The position numbers were made by a program, and so were the translations under genes. Under the pieces are notes generated by a model. The model saw only the letters and a program-made list of their open reading frames with translations, was not told where the DNA came from and did not search any database. DNA of 51,682 nt from Thermodesulfobacteriota bacterium (GTDB taxonomy: Bacteria; Desulfobacterota; Desulfobulbia; Desulfobulbales; Desulfocapsaceae): positions 1 through 51,682 of the forward strand of contig JBDLID010000004.1 of the NCBI GenBank assembly GCA_039715055.1, read 5' to 3'. Below are positions 3,084-50,800 of the stretch, one piece after another. Positions within the stretch are counted from its first letter, which is position 1. Each line of letters begins with the position of its first letter.

Positions 3084-3812
3084 TTGCTTCTATTGCGTGG
3101 TTGGACCATGGTGTTTAGAGTAAGATATCAAGTCAACCAACTCATCAACTCCCCCTGGAGACAATACGACATTATGGACATCAGTAAGTTTATTACAGAT
3201 CTGATCATCATTGCCCCCCCCCTGCTGCTCGCTCTCACCTTGCACGAGTTTGCCCACGGTTATGTTGCCTTCCGGCTTGGTGATCCAACCGCCAAGGCCA
3301 TGGGGCGCCTGACCTTAAACCCGCTTAAACACCTGGACCCGCTTGGGACCATCGCCTTTTTCTTTATCAAATTCGGCTGGGCCAAGCCGGTTCCGGTTAA
3401 TCCCAACTACTTTAAGGACCCCCAGAAAGGCATGCTCTGGGTCGCCCTGGCCGGGCCTGCGACCAATTTAGTGCTCGCTATCATCAGCGCCATCGGGGTC
3501 AAGCTGGTCTGGTTCATAGCAACAACCATCGGCTCCCCGACCCTCATCCAGACCGTCCTCCGCCCCCTTTACGACACCCTGGTTGCCAGTGTCTGGATCA
3601 ACCTGGTGCTCTGTATCTTCAATTTTCTGCCGATCCCTCCGCTGGACGGCAGCCGTATCCTGTCAGGACTGCTGCCGCCGGACATGGCAAGATCCTACAA
3701 CTCAATCGAACGCTACGGATTTATCATTATCCTGGTTCTTGCCTTCTCCGGTGTCCTCGGAAAACTCATTCTACCGGTGATCAGTTTCGCCACCAACATG
3801 CTGCTTGCCTGA
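3084..3812 (+). CDS. Site-2 protease family (peptidase M50) integral membrane zinc metalloprotease. The true start is probably the internal ATG near 3165 (MDISKF...).
   Basis: The HExxH motif (LHEFAHG) lies in a transmembrane context. A multi-pass hydrophobic profile and an LDG motif are typical of M50/S2P. Confidence 0.8.
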   Translation: MLLLRGWTMVFRVRYQVNQLINSPWRQYDIMDISKFITDLIIIAPPLLLALTLHEFAHGYVAFRLGDPTAKAMGRLTLNPLKHLDPLGTIAFFFIKFGWAKPVPVNPNYFKDPQKGMLWVALAGPATNLVLAIISAIGVKLVWFIATTIGSPTLIQTVLRPLYDTLVASVWINLVLCIFNFLPIPPLDGSRILSGLLPPDMARSYNSIERYGFIIILVLAFSGVLGKLILPVISFATNMLLA

Positions 3813-4174
3813 GGAACCGTCTGTTACACACATGAAAGAAATTCCCGCCAGTTCAGCCTTGCCGGGAGTTTCTTGTTGCAGACTAAAAAACAGGCGAGCA
3901 AAGTAGTCACCCGGGTTGTAATCAACACCAACTGCTGCTGCATCAGTACACTGTCTTTCCATGTCTGAAAGGTAATATCTCTCCGGCTGCAGGACGATCT
4001 AAAAAAATACCCTTTCCTCAATGGGATACACCTTTTATCATCGTCAATTAGATTTGCATTACTTATGATATTCATTGTAGTATAAATCCCGGGGCTCTGC
4101 CTCTTTGCTGTTCCCCTGGCCAGAATCGTGAGTAACGAGTTATTCCTGTTAAACAAATCAGCTAAAAGGTAAAA

Positions 4175-4720
4175 ATGGAAAACGGATCAAACAGAAGAAA
4201 TTTCCTGGCTTCAGCCGCTGCCGGTATCACCCTTCTTCCCCTGGTGAATTTTCTGTCAGGCTGCCGTCAGGAAAAAAAAGCCATACCGGAAAAGAAAATT
4301 TATGCTGACCCCAAGCTCGAACTGCTTGATCTTGCCCTCCAGCATGAGTTCGGGGCGGTCGTTCAGTACAGTAATCATGCAGGTGTCATTGCCGCACTCA
4401 ACCATGACAAGACCGGATATCTGCGGGATCAGGTCCAGACGATCATCGCTGATGAAGTGGAACATGCCATTGAGATTTCCGAGATACTGAAGAAAAACAA
4501 TCTCCAGCCATCGGTTACCGTATGGCCTGCCCAACTTGGAGAAACTCCAAAGGAGATGTTAGAAAAAGATATCAAGGCGGAAGAAGGTGCCATGAAGCTG
4601 TATGAACAGATACTTGCCTTGCCGCTGAACGATATGGAAAAACGGATTATTGAACAAATCGCCCTGTCCGAGGAGATGCATTTTACCACTTTTACCAGTC
4701 TATTTGGTGACTTTTCCTGA
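4175..4720 (+). CDS. Ferritin-like domain protein with a Tat-type signal peptide and a lipobox; predicted exported lipoprotein.
   Basis: The N-terminus reads MENGSNRRNFLASAAAGITLLPLVNFLSGC, giving an RRxFL twin-arginine motif and an LSGC lipobox. Ferritin-like helices follow, with E...EVEH and EE...E pairs. Confidence 0.65.
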   Translation: MENGSNRRNFLASAAAGITLLPLVNFLSGCRQEKKAIPEKKIYADPKLELLDLALQHEFGAVVQYSNHAGVIAALNHDKTGYLRDQVQTIIADEVEHAIEISEILKKNNLQPSVTVWPAQLGETPKEMLEKDIKAEEGAMKLYEQILALPLNDMEKRIIEQIALSEEMHFTTFTSLFGDFS

Positions 4721-11775: not shown

Positions 11776-11802
11776 TTCCCCTCCCTGCCAGCGTAATTGT
11801 CA

Positions 11803-11846
11803 ACAGTCTGTATACCTATTTCAACGGTATACAGACTGTTTTTATT
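11803..11846. terminator. Rho-independent terminator: ACAGTCTGTATACC / GGTATACAGACTGT hairpin followed by TTTTTAT.
   Basis: A perfect 14-bp inverted repeat plus a T-run. It sits between the convergent dacC-like and dnaE2 genes. Confidence 0.7.
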
Positions 11847-11887: not shown

Positions 11888-14884
11888 TCACGTCGTCCTG
11901 ACAAGACTCACCCTGTTCACCACCAGGCTGACTGCGCCAAAATCACGATCTATCGTCCCGTGCAGTACATACGGTCTGCCTGAGGACAGGAGATGGGCGT
12001 AACGCTGATATGTCCTTGGGAAAAAGGTGGTCTCCACCAGCCCGGTCTCATCCTCAAAGGTCAGGAACTCCATCACCTCGCCATTTTTGGTTGAAACCAG
12101 TTTGCCGGTGATCAGCCAACCGACAAAGCGCACTTTTTGACTGGTGTGATCCTCGAGATCGATTGCCCTGACCCGCCCTGCCAGGATACTTTCAGGCATC
12201 AGAGAGACCGGGTGACAGGAGGTGAGAAAACCCAGTATTGCATATTCCCTTCGCAGTCGCTCCCTGGTTACACCGTCTTTTAACTCTGGAGGAGGAGGCG
12301 CTGAAAAACCAAGCAGGGGTGTTGTCCGCTCCGCCGCTCTAGCACTATTGAGACGTGCGCACTCCCACAGCAGTTGACTGCGGCTCAAAGGTCCTGCCAC
12401 ACAATCCAGGGCACCGCTGTGGATCAGGGCCCGCACCTCGTCAGTCGACGGAGAGGTACGGACAAAAAAATCAGCCGGATTGCGATAAGCACCCTCCAGC
12501 CTGCAACTGATGACTCGCTCAACCAGACCGCGGGAAAGACCTTTGAGCGCCATCAGGCCGACCCGGACCACACTACCCTCGCCGCTCCATTTTCTGGTAC
12601 TTTCATTGACGCATGGAGGCACTATGGTCAAGCCGAGCCGCCTGGTCTCAGAGACATAGGCAAATGTGGAGTAGAAGCCACCCTCATTTGAAATCACCGC
12701 CGCCATGAACTGGGCCGGAAAATGGCACTTGAGATAGGCGGCCTGAAAAGAGACCTTTGCATAGGATGCCGAATGTGGCTTGCAGAATGAATAGCCGTCA
12801 AAGGAGAGGATCATCCGCCACAGATCCTCTATTACGCTTTGCTCGATCCCGTTTTGACGACAGCCTGAAAAAAATTCCTGCCGATAATCGGGCAGCCGCA
12901 TCTCCCGATCCTTTTTCGATAACACCTTGCGCAACCCGTCCGCCCGGGCGTGGGAAAAAGAGGCAAGGCGGACCGCCACCCGTGAAACATCCTCCTGGTA
13001 GACCATCAATCCGTAGGTCTCGTCCAGAACATCTGTCAGTAGAGGATGGAGCTGGTCATACCTGCCGCCATGGAGACGCCTGACATACTCCCTGACAAAT
13101 TCGTTGGCAGCCGGCCTGATGATCGATGACTGGATGACAAGCTGCTCAAAGTCACCCACCGCCGCCTTTTTCTGGAGAAGCCGCATGGCCGGGCTCTCGA
13201 TATAAAAGCAGCCCATGGTCAGCCCGTTGGCCACCGTCACCCTGGTGGCCGGATCATCTTCCGGCTGCCAGTTTGTCTCGTCAAATTCAACCCCACAGCC
13301 ACGCACAGCTCCAAGTCCGTCCCGGATGACACCCAGGCTGCGGTTGCCGAGCAGGTCGATCTTCACCAGCCCCGCCTCCTCGGTGCCATCCTTTTCCCAG
13401 TGAATGATGGGAACGCCCTTGGCGGCCCGCTCCACCGGTACATAGTGGTTGATCGGCTGCGGCGTGATGACCACGCCGCCCGGATGGACGGAGAGGTAAC
13501 GCGGAACTCCGACCAGTTGCTCCGCCTGTTTAAAAATTGACGGCCACGGTGGCGACAGGTCGATGCCCCGCATGGTCGGCAGGTGGGCCACGCTTGCCGC
13601 CATACTTGTACCATGACCACGATACCATGGCAGCCGCTTGGTCACCGTTGATATCTCCAGGGATGACAACCCATGGGCCCGGGCGGTTTCACGGATGGCC
13701 ATTTTCGGCTGAAAGCAGACGTGGTTGGCGACCATGGCGATGTGACCATTGAAATCATGAAGGACCTCGGCCAGAACATGGTCACGCTCGTCCCAGGAAA
13801 AATCGATATCGATGTCCGGCGGATCACTGCGGCCCGGATTTAAAAAACGCTCAAAATAGAGATTGTGTTTTACCGGGCAGACGTTTGTGATTTCCAGGCA
13901 GTAGGCAACAAGAGAGGCCGCACCTGAGCCGCGGCCGCAGATCCGCCTTTTTTTTCGCACACCGTTTGTTCCCAGGCGGTGGACGATATCACGCACCACC
14001 AAAAAATAGGAGGCGAATGCCATTTTACAGATCACCTTCAACTCGTGCTCCAGGCGTTCCACCACCGGTTCGGCCAGATCCTCTCCGTAGCGGTTGACCG
14101 CCCCCTCATAGGCCTTGCGACGCAGGACGGTGCCACTCTCTCCACGACCGCGCCAGGGCGGCATGATAATCCCAAAATCCGGGCCGCGGAATCGACAACG
14201 CGCTGCAAGCAGTTCACTGTTTTTCAAAACTTCAGGCCAGATTGCAAAACGGTCCGCATAAACATCAGGGTGCTCCAGATACTTCGCAGTGCAGTTGCTG
14301 CTTCGGCTCCTGATTTGCGACAGGCTTTTTTTCTCATCAATGGCCCGCAGCAGTTGAAACAGCTGCTGCTCATCCGGACCACCAAGGACTGCGGCCGGTG
14401 TACAGAGCGATGCGATCCTCCTGGACCGTGCCCAACTGCGCAGTCTCGATGCCCTTGCGTCCGGCTGCGCCCCGAGGTCCGCCGAAACCGACAGACCAGC
14501 CCGCTGCAGCCCCGCAAGAACTGTTCTGTTATCGCTTAAAAACAGAAGTCCCTCACCGTGGTCAGCGCACTCCCGGACGAGTTCAAAATCCGTATCCAGA
14601 TGCTTCCCTGTTAACAGCTGACAGAGGTTTTTATAGCCCTTCTCATTTTCAACCAGAGCGGTGAGCCGATGCCCGCCGTCGTCATCTATGTCCGCACCGA
14701 TAACCGGTCGCAGCCCCTCTTTTTTGCAGGCCGCAAGAAATGACCAGAGTCCGTAGAGGTTGTTCAGGTCGGTCAGGGCCAAACCGCTGTAGCCAGCCTT
14801 TTTTGCCAGGCGGCACAGTTTTGCCGGAGAGGCGGTGCCCTGCATCAGTGAATAGTGGGAACGGAGCCGCAGGGGGAAAAACAT
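11888..14884 (-). CDS. dnaE2: Error-prone DNA polymerase DnaE2 (ImuC), a Pol III alpha-like protein with a PHP domain.
   Basis: The 998-aa ORF has a PHP N-terminus (RSHYSLMQGTASPAKLCRLAKKAGYSGLALTDLNNLYG). Its start is coupled to the imuB stop by a 4-bp overlap. Confidence 0.9.
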   Translation of the reverse strand: MFFPLRLRSHYSLMQGTASPAKLCRLAKKAGYSGLALTDLNNLYGLWSFLAACKKEGLRPVIGADIDDDGGHRLTALVENEKGYKNLCQLLTGKHLDTDFELVRECADHGEGLLFLSDNRTVLAGLQRAGLSVSADLGAQPDARASRLRSWARSRRIASLCTPAAVLGGPDEQQLFQLLRAIDEKKSLSQIRSRSSNCTAKYLEHPDVYADRFAIWPEVLKNSELLAARCRFRGPDFGIIMPPWRGRGESGTVLRRKAYEGAVNRYGEDLAEPVVERLEHELKVICKMAFASYFLVVRDIVHRLGTNGVRKKRRICGRGSGAASLVAYCLEITNVCPVKHNLYFERFLNPGRSDPPDIDIDFSWDERDHVLAEVLHDFNGHIAMVANHVCFQPKMAIRETARAHGLSSLEISTVTKRLPWYRGHGTSMAASVAHLPTMRGIDLSPPWPSIFKQAEQLVGVPRYLSVHPGGVVITPQPINHYVPVERAAKGVPIIHWEKDGTEEAGLVKIDLLGNRSLGVIRDGLGAVRGCGVEFDETNWQPEDDPATRVTVANGLTMGCFYIESPAMRLLQKKAAVGDFEQLVIQSSIIRPAANEFVREYVRRLHGGRYDQLHPLLTDVLDETYGLMVYQEDVSRVAVRLASFSHARADGLRKVLSKKDREMRLPDYRQEFFSGCRQNGIEQSVIEDLWRMILSFDGYSFCKPHSASYAKVSFQAAYLKCHFPAQFMAAVISNEGGFYSTFAYVSETRRLGLTIVPPCVNESTRKWSGEGSVVRVGLMALKGLSRGLVERVISCRLEGAYRNPADFFVRTSPSTDEVRALIHSGALDCVAGPLSRSQLLWECARLNSARAAERTTPLLGFSAPPPPELKDGVTRERLRREYAILGFLTSCHPVSLMPESILAGRVRAIDLEDHTSQKVRFVGWLITGKLVSTKNGEVMEFLTFEDETGLVETTFFPRTYQRYAHLLSSGRPYVLHGTIDRDFGAVSLVVNRVSLVRTT

Positions 14885-14886
14885 TT

Positions 14887-16074
14887 TCAGGCCGAACTGT
14901 CAGCACATTTTCCCGGACCAAACCACACAGCATCGTGACCAAAACGGCTGCGAACCCGGTCCATGGCAGCAAACAGCTTCTCCTCCCGGAGCTGCCTCGG
15001 GTTTTTTGTGCAGAAGAGGGAAAGCTGGGGAGAGACCTTTTGCAAACGGTCGGCGATGAGTCTGCAGCTGCGCAGACGGCTGCGCATACTCCAGGCCCGG
15101 AGCAAGGCGTCAAAGGCCATTTTTTCGATCTCAACATCCCTGCTGCTCCCCTGTCGACCTGAGCTTCCTCCTGTACTGCGACGACCATCACTGTGATGAA
15201 GTTCAACCATAACCCGTCGGCATTCAAGCTGCCTTGAACGCAACTTGCGACAGAGACGCCCGGCGAGGCCTCTCAAACAGATACGGACAAGCTCGTGATC
15301 TCCACAGTCGTCATCAAACAGGTGCTCAAAAAAGATCTTTGCAGCCGACTCATTTTCAGCATGCACCTGACAACTGTCTATGCCGCGGCTGACCTGATGG
15401 AGAAATTCTCCGCCCTTGCCGAAGATAACCATGAGCTGCTGGGGGCTCAGACTTGCCAGTTCACCGACCCGGCTCAGATTGAACTCCGCCATCCGCCCCT
15501 GCTGGTGACGGCTCACTCCGGGAAGAATGGTAAGCGGCAGAGGAGCCAGAAATGCACTCTCTTCCCCCGGACCGACAATATATTCGCCCAGCGGCTTAAC
15601 CAGACGGGAGGCCACTTTTGAAACCAGCTTGGAAGTCGCCACCGTCCAGATCGGCCGGATTCCCAGGCGGTTGCCAAGCTGTTTACGCAGCCGCCAGGCA
15701 ATATCCGGCGGGGGACCAAACAGACGATGGGTGCCGGTCACATCGACAAAAAGATGACCATCGAGCAGCCCCTGCTCGATCTTTGGAGAAAAACTGCTCA
15801 CCTCGGAGACGAGGCCCTGCATGGCACGCCGGTAAAGAAGAGGCTGCGGCGGCAGGACTGCTGCACGGCGGCAGAGCCGTCTTGCCCGGCTGAGGCGCAT
15901 TCCTTTACGAACGCCGTCCTGGTATGCCTCTTCACTCATGTCATAGACCGAGGCCCGGCCGCCGGCTCCGGCAGCGATAAGAAGGGGGCGACTGCGCAGC
16001 GAGGTGTCTTCAAGGCGCTCTACGGCAACAGCAAAGTCAGCCACATTCAAGTGGATAATGGCACGTTCCAGCAT
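14887..16074 (-). CDS. imuB: ImuB-type Y-family DNA polymerase homolog (UmuC/DinB-like, mutagenesis cassette). The start was set at the internal ATG (MLERAIIHLNVADFAVAVE).
   Basis: The Y-family N-terminus follows the IxHxDxDxFFAxVE pattern. The longer ORF running to 16251 passes through a structured inverted repeat and has no match to the family N-terminus, so it was rejected. Confidence 0.75.
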   Translation of the reverse strand: MLERAIIHLNVADFAVAVERLEDTSLRSRPLLIAAGAGGRASVYDMSEEAYQDGVRKGMRLSRARRLCRRAAVLPPQPLLYRRAMQGLVSEVSSFSPKIEQGLLDGHLFVDVTGTHRLFGPPPDIAWRLRKQLGNRLGIRPIWTVATSKLVSKVASRLVKPLGEYIVGPGEESAFLAPLPLTILPGVSRHQQGRMAEFNLSRVGELASLSPQQLMVIFGKGGEFLHQVSRGIDSCQVHAENESAAKIFFEHLFDDDCGDHELVRICLRGLAGRLCRKLRSRQLECRRVMVELHHSDGRRSTGGSSGRQGSSRDVEIEKMAFDALLRAWSMRSRLRSCRLIADRLQKVSPQLSLFCTKNPRQLREEKLFAAMDRVRSRFGHDAVWFGPGKCADSSA

Positions 16075-16176
16075 GGTAGAAGGGTAAATACAATTCAGAA
16101 TCTGATTACGTATAAAGTGTCGCCACCTCTTGCCATTGAATAACAAGCAGTTAAGGCTGACATTCTGGCCCGGAGT

Positions 16177-16273
16177 GATAGATGTTTGATTTGCGGGACG
16201 CCATAAACCCATCCATAGGGGCTTGATCGCAGCCGTCCGGGCTGTGATCAAGCCCCCAAATCAAACATCTATC
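16177..16273. repeat. Nested long inverted repeat. The outer arms are a 17-bp perfect match (GATAGATGTTTGATTTG / CAAATCAAACATCTATC). The inner arms are an 11-bp perfect match (GGGGCTTGATC / GATCAAGCCCC).
   Basis: Read directly from the sequence in the 290-bp gap between the DUF72 stop and the imuB start. Confidence 0.6.
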
Positions 16274-16366
16274 CTCCCTACTCTGTCGAAAAAATTAATC
16301 CTGTATTCAATTATTAAATACCATGACTGAGTTTGGTGGGTAATCACCGTCCCATCCGGACGCTGC

Positions 16367-17230
16367 TCAACCGGCGGCGAGCAGCTGCCCGAACAGCCTG
16401 GCGTTTCTCGGTGCCTGGGCCCGGACATGATTGTTGAAAAATACCGCTCCGCTTGAGGCCCTGCTGCAGATAACCGACATATGGTCGCGCAACCAGCTCT
16501 TCAGCTCCTCTTCACTGTAGTCGTAGTCGAATTTCTGCTGCATATTGGCCGATCGCCAGCCCCTTTCATTGCGGCCATGAAAGCGGATATAAAAAAGGTC
16601 GGGATTGGTCACCACATCAAGCAGGGGAAAAAGACCGGGCAGTTGCGGAGCGTCAACGGTCACCAGGGTGACTCCTCGTTTCTCAAGCTCGGCAAAAACA
16701 GAATCCCGGGCCCAGGAACGATGACGAAATTCAACGGCCAGCGGCAGCCCGGCCAACCCGTCGAGCAGCCTGGCCAGATAGCTGCGCCTGGAGTGAGTCC
16801 AGTCAAAATCAGGAGGAAGCTGAATGAGGATGGCCAGTAAACGGTTCTTCAACGGAGCGATTCCCTGGCGATAAGAGCGCAGCTGTTCGGGCCACCCGGC
16901 ATCGACTTCATGGGTCAGGGTTCGGGTCAGCTTGGCGGCAAAACAGAAGTGGTCCGGAGCTCTGCTGACCATCCGCTCCACAGCCTCGGCCCTGACCATC
17001 TGGTACCAGGTATAGTTAAGCTCCACCACTGAAAATTTTTGACCATAGAGCGGCAGCATGTCAGGGGTTTTGGTCAGTGATGGATAAAAACCGCCGTCCA
17101 CCCACTCCGTATAGGAATAACCGCTGGTTCCGATCCGCACCCTGCTCTCCTGTGCAGAAGAGTGGTTTTGGACCATATGGACCTGCGGCAACGGATCCGT
17201 CTGCTGTTTCATAACCTCTTTGCTGCTCAC
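16367..17230 (-). CDS. DUF72 (YecE-like) family protein. It is translationally coupled to lexA through a GTGA overlap. An alternative internal ATG start is possible.
   Basis: The conserved DUF72 N-terminus is RIGTSGYSY, and the family-typical length is about 270 aa. Its start codon overlaps the lexA stop. Confidence 0.75.
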   Translation of the reverse strand: MSSKEVMKQQTDPLPQVHMVQNHSSAQESRVRIGTSGYSYTEWVDGGFYPSLTKTPDMLPLYGQKFSVVELNYTWYQMVRAEAVERMVSRAPDHFCFAAKLTRTLTHEVDAGWPEQLRSYRQGIAPLKNRLLAILIQLPPDFDWTHSRRSYLARLLDGLAGLPLAVEFRHRSWARDSVFAELEKRGVTLVTVDAPQLPGLFPLLDVVTNPDLFYIRFHGRNERGWRSANMQQKFDYDYSEEELKSWLRDHMSVICSRASSGAVFFNNHVRAQAPRNARLFGQLLAAG

Positions 17231-17841
17231 ATCTGTCCACGGATGACGCCGACCACCTTACCCTGGACCAGCAGCTCGCCGAACCCATAACGTTTTGCGT
17301 CGAACTCCTTGTTTTCAGGGCGAAGCTCAATACAGTCGTCATGGCGAAAAAACCGCTTCACAGTTGCCTCTTCACCGTGGAGAAGGGCCACTACAACCTC
17401 CCCGTTTTCCGCATACTGACGTGGTTCACACACCACAAAATCGCGGTCGAGAATCCCGGCGTCACGCATGGATTGTCCATCCACCCGGAGACAGAAAAGA
17501 TTGTCACCGGGAAACATTGCAGCGTCAACCCACACCGATCCATCCCACTCCTGCTGAGCATACATGGGCAGACCGGCGGTAATCTGCCCGATTACCGGCA
17601 GCTCACGACCGGCCCCACTTTTTTTCTCAGGTGGAGAACCGGACAGCAGGCGGATGGTGCGACTGTAATGACCGGCCCGCTCGAGATAGCCTTTTTTTTC
17701 AAGCTGACCAATAAACTGGGCCACCGCAGAATGGCTTATTCCCAGATCCAATGCGGCTTGACGCAGGCTTGGAGCCCGGCCCTGGTTGTCTAAACATTCT
17801 TTGAGGTAATCGAGAAAGGCGCTTTGTTTGGTGGTCAGCAT
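17227..17841 (-). CDS. lexA: LexA repressor: winged-helix N-terminus plus an S24 autopeptidase C-terminus.
   Basis: The 204-aa ORF has an HTH in the N-terminal region. The C-terminal S24 domain shows Ser/Lys dyad context (VDGQSMRDAGI...VVALLHGEEATVKRF). Confidence 0.9.
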   Translation of the reverse strand: MLTTKQSAFLDYLKECLDNQGRAPSLRQAALDLGISHSAVAQFIGQLEKKGYLERAGHYSRTIRLLSGSPPEKKSGAGRELPVIGQITAGLPMYAQQEWDGSVWVDAAMFPGDNLFCLRVDGQSMRDAGILDRDFVVCEPRQYAENGEVVVALLHGEEATVKRFFRHDDCIELRPENKEFDAKRYGFGELLVQGKVVGVIRGQM

Positions 17842-17847
17842 GAGAGA

Positions 17848-17992
17848 AGGGTGTAGGGTTCAGGGTATAAGGTTTAGGGTATAAGGTTTAGGGTATAAAA
17901 GCAGGGTGCAGGGTTTAAGGTATAGGGTTTAAGGTTTAAGGGCTAAGGGTATAAGACGGGGTGCAGGGTTGAAGGTACAGGGTTTAAGGATT
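17848..17992. repeat. Degenerate tandem array of ~7/14-bp G-tract repeats (GGTTTAGGGTATAA and variants) containing the telomere-like TTTAGGG. Thirteen GGG tracts occur on the + strand, which is the lexA template strand.
   Basis: Read directly from the sequence. Exact tandem 14-mers occur at 17871-17884 and 17885-17898. The array begins 7 bp upstream of the lexA ATG. Confidence 0.8.
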
Positions 17993-18004
17993 AAAAATCA
18001 CCAA

Positions 18005-18042
18005 TGTACATATACATTATCTTGACAATGGGGAAATGTCAA
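18005..18042 (-). promoter_or_regulatory. Candidate lexA promoter on the - strand: TTGACA (18042-18037), a 17-nt spacer, then TAATGT (18019-18014). The palindrome TGTACATATACA (18006-18017) overlaps the -10 and is a candidate SOS operator.
   Basis: Hexamer matches and the TGTA-N4-TACA dyad were read from the sequence. The position is consistent with autoregulation. No validated LexA-box consensus exists for this lineage. Confidence 0.3.
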
Positions 18043-18084
18043 TACACTTTGTCTGGCTGTTACCCTCACTCCTGGCCCGCTGGA

Positions 18085-23541: not shown

Positions 23542-23673
23542 TTAGTGCCTTACTCCATGAAAACGCCAATAAAAAACAAGACGTAATGAAATAACTTTAA
23601 AATCAAAAAGTTAGCTCAACCACAAAAACACTTATCCAGCGACTCTAAAAAGTTTCACGACTTATCGGGTTAG
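23542..23673 (+). repeat. Copy A of a ~130-bp dispersed repeat (TTAGTGCCTTACTCCATGAAAAC...CACTTATCCAGCGACTCTAAAAAGTTT.ACGACTT.TCGGGT.AG). The second copy is at 50670..50800.
   Basis: By-eye alignment of the two copies gives about 80% identity, with conserved 5' (~35 nt) and 3' (~50 nt) blocks and a diverged middle. Both copies are on the + strand in intergenic DNA. Confidence 0.6.
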
Positions 23674-47261: not shown

Positions 47262-47421
47262 CTTTTCATCACCTTCAACGGATTCCTGCCGAAAACACTT
47301 ACCTTCACGGATAACTGCCGGACAATCTTTTTGCTGAGACCTGAGAAGTCCAGAAATTCAAATGGTCCTGTTTGATACAGACTAGCATCAACCAGAACCA
47401 TTTGAAACAACGGTTGTATGA

Positions 47422-50673: not shown

Positions 50674-50800
50674 TGCCTTACTCCATGAAAACACCAATAA
50701 AAAAAAGAAGTGATGAGGTAGCTTTAAAATCACAAACTTAGAGTGATCACCAAACCACTTATCCAGCGACTCTAAAAAGTTTTACGACTTGTCGGGTCAG
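50670..50800 (+). repeat. Copy B of the ~130-bp dispersed repeat (see 23542..23673). It starts at the stop codon of the Gly-rich gene.
   Basis: By-eye alignment to copy A gives about 80% identity, in the same orientation. Confidence 0.6.

Follow-up and report, generated by a model that had tools for sequence, protein, structure and literature searches.

The window, by which we mean the whole 51.7-kb stretch of DNA analysed, carries on its - strand a run of four genes, all recognised with Pfam and NCBIfam, and a strongly folding nested inverted repeat at 16177-16273, between the second and the third of them. The genes are:

17841-17227, - strand: lexA
17230-16367, - strand: DUF72 gene
ATG at 16074, - strand: imuB, a Y-family polymerase of 395 aa
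14884-11888, - strand: dnaE2-type polymerase III alpha homologue

The first-pass annotation had called the genes flanking the repeat correctly. As in its homologues, imuB begins at the ATG at 16074, and a start at the TTG at 16251, inside the repeat, is wrong. The closest homologues of ImuB (50-64% identity) belong to Desulfocapsaceae and other Desulfobulbales, and alignment with 26 homologues places N at the DxD position and DG at the DE position of the window protein, which is without the catalytic carboxylates. Judged from this alignment the Y-family polymerase is probably catalytically dead, which fits ImuB and makes the label a reasonable one. A candidate LexA box, TGTA-N4-TACA, was derived from three lexA promoters, those of the window and of two relatives (L002 and L003), and is likely to be the LexA box of this clade. 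No such box is present in the spacer 16075-16366 and no promoter-like site was reported in the DUF72-imuB spacer; imuB-dnaE2 is most likely still dependent on read-through from the lexA promoter.

The three boxes read TGTATATGTACA (window, 18010-18021), TGTACATGTACA (L002, about 2862-2873) and TGTAAATGTACA (L003, about 3455-3466), and at all three lexA genes they lie directly downstream of a promoter of the TTGACA-N17-TAAGAT/TACAAT type. The 5' leader of lexA in the window (17848-17994) consists of about 150 bp of tandem G-poor heptamers situated between the box and promoter (about 18000-18045) and the ATG at 17841. On the - strand these heptamers follow ACCYTNN (CCCTAAA, CCTTATA and others), with TRF periods of 7, 14 and 55 and a GC skew of +0.7. 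In L002 and L003 the box is found about 25 nt from the lexA ATG, with no heptamer leader, and similar ACCTTAC heptamers are present in the imuB-dnaE2 gap of L002 (5785-5810).

The same junction was compared in relatives, using 80 loci of GTDB species representatives and three further loci retrieved through exact protein matches. The gene order lexA-DUF72-imuB-dnaE2 is found in every relative locus that reaches far enough (82 Desulfobulbales loci), and in about 68 of these 82 the gap between DUF72 and imuB measures only -8 to +20 bp, frequently with ATGA as the overlap. Overlapping or adjoining as they do in relatives, the four genes form one operon with translational coupling, which makes it doubtful that, as proposed earlier, two transcription units meet at the repeat. 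The position held here by DUF72 is usually that of imuA. The DUF72 gene (TIM-barrel, UVDE-like) is present in all 82 loci (window 11888-17841; L002-L085), often overlapping imuB; no mention of DUF72 together with imuB or dnaE2 was found in the literature searched, and DUF72 has been described as enriched near PolB2 translesion operons (PMC11791011).

The outer arms of the repeat, GATAGATGTTTGATTTG (16177-16193) and CAAATCAAACATCTATC (16257-16273), were reconfirmed as a perfect 17-bp inverted repeat, and they grow to 21 nt at 95% and, across a one-base bulge, gain four further pairs (GGAG/CTCC). The outer 17-mer occurs at two sites only within the window, with 0.19 expected by chance. The inner repeat GGGGCTTGATC/GATCAAGCCCC is likewise perfect and, if one mismatch is allowed, reaches 17 bp, giving an inner hairpin with arms at 16218-16234 and 16240-16256 and a 5-nt loop. 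The fold is very stable, as the first-pass annotation had stated, with minimum free energies of -66.8 (- strand) and -68.0 kcal/mol (+ strand); compared with dinucleotide shuffles this corresponds to z = -7.7 and -8.4, respectively, and none of 200 shuffles folds as well. The additional pairing of CGGGACG with CGTCCCG that had been proposed does not exist: CGGGACG (16194-16200) is without an exact complement, pairing is limited to a 5-bp GGACG/CGTCC stretch, and in the minimum-energy fold another, weak stem forms at this position. There is indeed no U-tract, as neither strand has a T-run after the hairpin, and a scan of 16102-16347 reported no terminator-like site; the hairpin is not an intrinsic (Rho-independent) terminator. 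An independent Logan assembly (L001, run SRR27843389) contains the nested repeat base for base, which excludes an assembly artefact, and the repeat is real. When the window copy was searched against Rfam 15 only a sub-threshold mir-190 match was obtained (30 bits, against a gathering threshold of 48), and ten typical copies of the family described below gave no match at the element. We set the Rfam matches aside as chance miRNA-like ones; the element belongs to no curated Rfam 15 family.

Two other inverted repeats were noticed in the window. A perfect 15-nt inverted pair at 11802-11840, just downstream of dnaE2, is probably a terminator region, and a strong inverted repeat with 20-nt arms at 90% (TTCAAATGGTCCTGTTTGAT...) is situated at 47357-47406.

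Conservation in relatives had been suggested as a check on the repeat: at the DUF72-imuB junction the element is absent from all 82 relatives with identical gene order, so that the 292-bp spacer of the window is a derived state. In about a dozen relative loci the gap is also enlarged, to 51-565 bp, with inserts that are mutually unrelated. The gaps of L002, L015 and L040 hold a different repeat common to all three, and that of L043 holds tandem hairpins. Since unrelated inserts are found there in several relatives, the junction is a permissive and repeatedly struck insertion site. The enlarged gap of L081 was left out as an artefact of a frameshifted DUF72 gene.

Several details of these junctions are recorded here in their own right. 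Two Desulfocapsaceae MAGs, L032 (3810-3994) and L038 (3813-3994), carry a nested hairpin of about 125 nt at the junction, with GATCACAGGG...CCCTGTGATTG around GAGCGGCAAGG...CCTTGCCGCTC. It is 74% identical between the two and unrelated to the element of the window, and it is another independent structured insertion at this site. The DUF72-imuB spacer of L068, a Desulfobulbaceae MAG (Soudan_16), contains at 3604-3853 the C-terminal half of an IS200-like Y1 transposase (Pfam Y1_Tnp, E = 2.8e-8). A second dispersed repeat family (…AAAAAGTTTTACGACTTGTCGGGTYAG…) has intergenic copies in the window at 50723-50800 and 23636-23673, which are 80-87% identical to the filler of the DUF72-imuB gap in L002; the L002 repeat is also found in L015, L023, L034, L040 and L051 and is common to several genera. 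In L002, the closest relative (GCA_008633355.1), the 3' end of DUF72 and the DUF72-imuB spacer are copied, inverted, upstream of the lexA promoter (2586-2667 with 4438-4519, 82 nt, 90%; 2750-2792 with 4344-4386, 43 nt, 100%). These inverted repeats bracket lexA-DUF72 and may reflect a segment capable of inversion, a rearrangement or an error in the MAG assembly.

An exact search with the 21-nt outer arm (GATAGATGTTTGATTTGSGGG) gave no match in GTDB genomes and JGI metagenomes, collections from which the source MAG is absent. This zero reflects both that absence and the copy-specific nature of the arm, and a naive BLAST of the 17-bp arm would wrongly suggest that the repeat is unique. A weak blastn match between the spacer and L012 led to the common core CC(T/C)GGACGGC-N21-GGGTTTATGGCGTCC, which is present at two sites in L012 and at one each in L054 and L068 (three GTDB genomes), where the closing arms are different yet complementary. 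When metagenome contigs were scanned with GGACGGCN{19,23}GGGTNTATNGCGTCC, at least 120 matching stretches were recovered; this pattern fixes 20 core positions, and the conservation of the family core is to that extent a product of construction. The core pattern was found neither in viral contigs nor in the plasmid database PLSDB (0 matches in each). Among the matches listed, 36 of 128 lie less than 100 nt from a contig end, and many profile hits are cut by contig ends; several metagenome contigs carry 2-3 copies, there are up to 3 copies in 8.5 kb, and one contig both begins and finishes in a copy. Copies at contig ends are the behaviour of a high-copy repeat, and this family often breaks assemblies. 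Among the matches listed, 121 of 138 copies are intergenic, and the strands of a copy and of its neighbouring ORFs are same/same in 14 cases, opposite/opposite in 14, convergent in 13 and divergent in 8; no orientation bias relative to genes was found when tested. An nhmmer profile built from 64 typical copies gives a single match in the window, at 16346-16169 (E = 7e-20; next best E = 0.17), which shows that the repeat belongs to this multicopy family. The window itself holds one copy: neither sensitive blastn with the element and the whole spacer nor nhmmer at maximum sensitivity detected a second one.

Typical copies of the family are 168-186 bp long. They open with CTGATTACC(A/C)CTGAAACTCAGC and close with the inverted GCTGAG...TGGTAATCAG, ends that are kept across subfamilies with different internal arms, and in 54 aligned copies these terminal inverted repeats (CTGATTACCNCTGAAACTCAG and ...GGTAATCAG) are at least 90% conserved at most positions. 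The copies are flanked by 10-bp direct duplications, with a mean identity of 6.8/10 in 68 distinct copies compared with 3.7 +/- 0.2 for shuffled partners. Duplications of at least 8/10 were found in 35 of the 68 copies, where 1.5 are expected, and 7 copies have 10/10; the duplicated target sites are 81% A+T. The family thus has conserved terminal inverted repeats and a target duplication of fixed length, and its members are short and non-coding (typically 168-186 bp, 246 bp in the window). Together with their dispersal over the contigs and loci searched, these properties identify it as a family of MITEs, i.e. non-coding, nearly palindromic DNA transposons moved in trans by a transposase encoded elsewhere. 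It appears to be undescribed, as it is without an Rfam model and none was found in the literature searched, where nothing linking MITEs with Desulfobulbales was encountered either. A search of 205 fetched loci (1.4 Mb) and of the PLSDB plasmids yielded no autonomous element sharing these ends. Pairs of terminal repeats 0.4-5 kb apart were seen in two cases only, each of which proved to be two separate MITEs around ordinary genes. An origin of the variable arms as halves of target palindromes that predate the insertion was rejected, for the true ends and the 10-bp duplications lie further out; the sorting of the arms into subfamilies also counters it.

With the strand of the family core corresponding to the - strand of the window, the copy in the DUF72-imuB spacer is composed as follows:

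16102-16347, - strand: full MITE-family copy of 246 bp (profile match, both family ends, 246-nt fold that pairs the termini)
16327-16347, - strand: left terminal repeat GTGATTACCCACCAAACTCAG (consensus CTGATTACCNCTGAAACTCAG), 16-17 of 21 positions matching family variants
16300-16311, - strand: left arm ATTGAATACAGG of an extra inverted-repeat layer, seen only in this long variant
16257-16277, - strand: 5' arm of outer helix P1 (GGAG + GATAGATGTTTGATTTG), the outer arm of the first-pass annotation
16248-16277, - strand: GGAGG-N4-ATG six-codon mini-ORF, judged fortuitous (no frame-specific openness in the family)
16218-16256, - strand: inner hairpin P2, 17-bp arms with one mismatch and a CGGAC loop
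16194-16221, - strand: conserved asymmetric segment CCCCTATGGATGGGTTTATGGCGTCCCG between P2 and P1, which gives the element its polarity
16172-16193, - strand: 3' arm of P1 (CAAATCAAACATCTATC + A + CTCC), from repeat search and fold
16135-16147, - strand: right arm CTTGTTATTCAAT of the extra layer, from repeat search and alignment
16102-16109, - strand: right terminal repeat remnant GTAATCAG (consensus GGTAATCAG), 8 of 8 positions matching
16348-16366, - strand: residual native spacer after the DUF72 stop codon, 19 nt
16075-16101, - strand: residual native spacer before the imuB ATG, 27 nt, without a Shine-Dalgarno-like sequence

The left end is at the expected place and in the expected orientation, beginning at 16347, 19 nt past the DUF72 stop codon. 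The element fills most of the 292-bp spacer: when 16102-16347 is removed 19 + 27 nt are left, and a spacer of about 46 nt is within the range seen in relatives. The proposal that the repeat is a MITE-like element was therefore right as to class, and wrong in taking the 17-bp arms for terminal inverted repeats, since these arms are an internal stem that differs between subfamilies and the true ends, at 16347 and 16102, are situated some 75 bp beyond them on either side. We consider it very probable that the nested repeat is the central hairpin of one MITE copy inserted in the DUF72-imuB spacer of a LexA-controlled operon.

As a member of its family this copy is atypical. It measures 246 bp against 168-186 bp, it has the extra layer, its P2 is lengthened from the 8-bp CTGCAGCC/GGCTGCAG stem of the family to 17 bp, and its right end is degenerate or interrupted on the inner side, with no recognisable duplication in the flanks (2/10). 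Its central arms are closest to those of one subfamily (e.g. L201, GGAAGTATCAGATGTTCGATTTGAG). From these features the copy seems to be old or rearranged, with central helices that are still almost perfect, and perfect arms beside decayed ends could mean selection on the hairpin at this locus.

That the family as a whole maintains its fold is evident from the alignment of 54 copies, in which an outer helix of 14 pairs, homologous to P1, and an inner helix of 8 pairs are paired in 94% of cells. Double-sided changes occur in 144 cells, compared with 48.7 +/- 6.8 in shuffles, and sliding the partners by 1-3 columns reduces pairing to 31-57%. The outer helix is kept with compensatory changes across the family, and the inner one exists in the variants CTGCAGCC/GGCTGCAG, CTGTGGCC/GGCCACAG, CTGCGGCC/GGCCGCAG and CTGTAGCC/GGCTACAG. 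At the level of sequence comparison, this covariation shows that the nested two-helix architecture is family-wide and maintained by compensatory substitutions. The most conserved part of the family is a segment of about 30 nt, AAGCCCCCAKGGAYGGGTTTATGGCGTCC, found between the helices on one side only, the second half of which is imposed by the search pattern and the first half of which is free of it; in the segment CCCCTATGGATGGGTTTATGGCGTCCCG of the window, correspondingly, GGGTNTATNGCGTCC is imposed and the AAGCCCCCAKGGA part is free. The pair statistics show that the element itself needs its foldback. As the element is palindromic DNA and occurs in both orientations, they are compatible with selection at either the RNA or the DNA level.

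Of the other origins that can be considered for the hairpin, the one with most in its favour is a dedicated cis-regulatory RNA that would set the ratio of lexA-DUF72 to imuB-dnaE2, in one of the roles that the first-pass annotation had suggested (an attenuator, a processing site or a stability element). A very stable hairpin without a U-tract, lying inside an operon on the transcribed strand, would suit such a role, and so would the perfect arms of an element whose ends have decayed and the presence of the same MITE family in the imuB-dnaE2 spacer of L068. This origin is nevertheless improbable, because the element is missing at the junction in all 82 relatives and its sequence belongs to a dispersed family with target duplications, found in unrelated contexts and in both orientations; furthermore, the unrelated inserts at the same junction elsewhere speak for a permissive site and not for a conserved function. 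Less probable still is that the family represents a structured non-coding RNA or ribozyme gene with merely incidental flanking repeats. The strong compensatory variation in two helices, the highly conserved asymmetric 30-nt segment and the apparent presence of many copies per genome, as known for some self-cleaving ribozymes, could be read in this way. However, terminal inverted repeats and 10-bp target duplications are marks of DNA transposition, no orientation bias relative to genes exists, no Rfam match is obtained even at E <= 1-10, and a palindromic DNA element yields the same pair statistics on both strands.

A cruciform-forming operator had also been put forward, and a DNA operator or cruciform bound by LexA or another regulator would give imuB-dnaE2 separate control; the element does belong to an SOS operon, 100 bp before imuB, and supercoiling could extrude its inner hairpin (17 bp, 5-nt loop). 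As an origin this is very hard to credit, for the candidate LexA box is not in the element, the spacer is without both a TGTA-N4-TACA box and a promoter-like site, the arms differ between family copies, the 82 relatives lack the element at this junction, and the family is dispersed elsewhere. Equally hard to believe is translation of the six-codon ORF, or of a longer family peptide, as a leader peptide: the ORF pointed out earlier is present (16277-16248, - strand) with its GGAGG-N4-ATG, and several subfamilies have GGAG-N5-7-NTG at the same position, but a role for it is without support, since there is no frame-specific signal across the family (the six frames are open to a similar extent in the G+C-rich core, the medians being 42, 43 and 46 codons for forward frames and 52, 29 and 30 for reverse ones), several subfamilies have CTG as the start codon or lack one, the ORF of the window ends after six codons where others run for 25-50, being cut short in the window copy only, and the Shine-Dalgarno-like GGAG is buried in helix P1.

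Returning to the MITE, its history at this locus may be reconstructed as follows. A copy would have landed in a short DUF72-imuB spacer (about 36-46 nt) and enlarged it to 292 bp, the pre-insertion junction being expected as ...GGATGGGACG|ATTCTGAATT..., and the mobilising enzyme was presumably a DDE transposase making 10-bp staggered cuts. The hairpin is probably maintained since the element, and not the host operon, needs the foldback. At its present position the element should be co-transcribed with the operon, and the insertion would break the DUF72-imuB translational coupling seen in relatives. The mRNA is predicted to contain, without a U-tract, a 17-bp hairpin on which a helix of about 21-22 bp is stacked. 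In principle this structure has the length that RNase III requires and the strength to halt 3' exonucleases; it could serve as an RNase III site or as an exonuclease barrier, and the output of imuB-dnaE2 might then drop relative to lexA-DUF72. A secondary effect of the element on operon expression is plausible by analogy with known repeats, and the RNase III or exonuclease-barrier hairpin and the loss of translational coupling are its likely routes. We regard as possible, at rather low probability, the stronger proposition that the MITE has been co-opted, with its double helix acting as an RNase III or exonuclease-barrier element that uncouples and lowers imuB-dnaE2, and, more broadly, that the conserved core and covarying stems mark a functional nucleic-acid motif (a site for the transposase or a host factor, or an RNA module) spread by transposition through Desulfobulbales. 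If co-option is true, the mutagenic imuB-dnaE2 half of the SOS operon is uncoupled and lowered.

The family resembles known bacterial MITEs in being short and non-coding, in its terminal inverted repeats, fixed-length duplications and long foldback hairpin, and in its dispersed, mostly intergenic copies, and it also disrupts short-read assemblies. It differs from them in that no parent insertion sequence was found among the loci and plasmids searched, in its conserved asymmetric middle segment and in stems that covary between subfamilies; the window copy, moreover, is without a duplication and without part of one end. The ends recall those which we take to be characteristic of the IS4 family (CTGA... 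ends of the IS10/IS50 type, with target duplications of 9-12 bp), a likeness that serves as a lead only; no transposase gene with these ends was found in any fetched locus. REP/BIME repeats (RAYT, IS200-like Y1) are likewise intergenic hairpins that can sit between operon genes and stabilise upstream mRNA, and a fragment of a Y1 transposase is located in the DUF72-imuB spacer of L068; REPs, however, are 20-40 nt long and have no such terminal repeats or duplication, unlike the present family of about 175 bp with its 10-bp duplications, and the element is not a REP/BIME. Correia elements (CREE/NEMIS) of Neisseria and ERIC sequences of enterobacteria are often co-transcribed, form long hairpins in mRNA and can alter its processing and stability. 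They offer the best analogy for a possible effect of the window copy inside its operon, but they are unrelated to it in sequence: the terminal repeats of Correia elements measure 26 bp and their duplication is TA, against CTGATTACC ends and duplications of 10 bp in the present family.

MITEs inside operons and their side effects at the RNA level are well known, and the present case is unsurprising in kind. For annotation it means that a striking structure in an SOS mutagenesis operon is very probably a transposon copy, and annotators should not take it for a conserved regulatory element. Because its copies are numerous enough to break up metagenome assemblies of sulfur-cycling sediment bacteria, a profile of the family would aid the curation of MAGs. 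Operons with and without inserts at the junction constitute a natural experiment on coupling and spacing for the ImuB-DnaE2 mutasome. A further, independently inserted copy of the MITE family, with the intact duplication TATATTTTT, occupies the imuB-dnaE2 spacer of L068 (5242-5375), and in L012 and L054 copies are found beside the operon, from which it follows that this operon tolerates insertions of the family.
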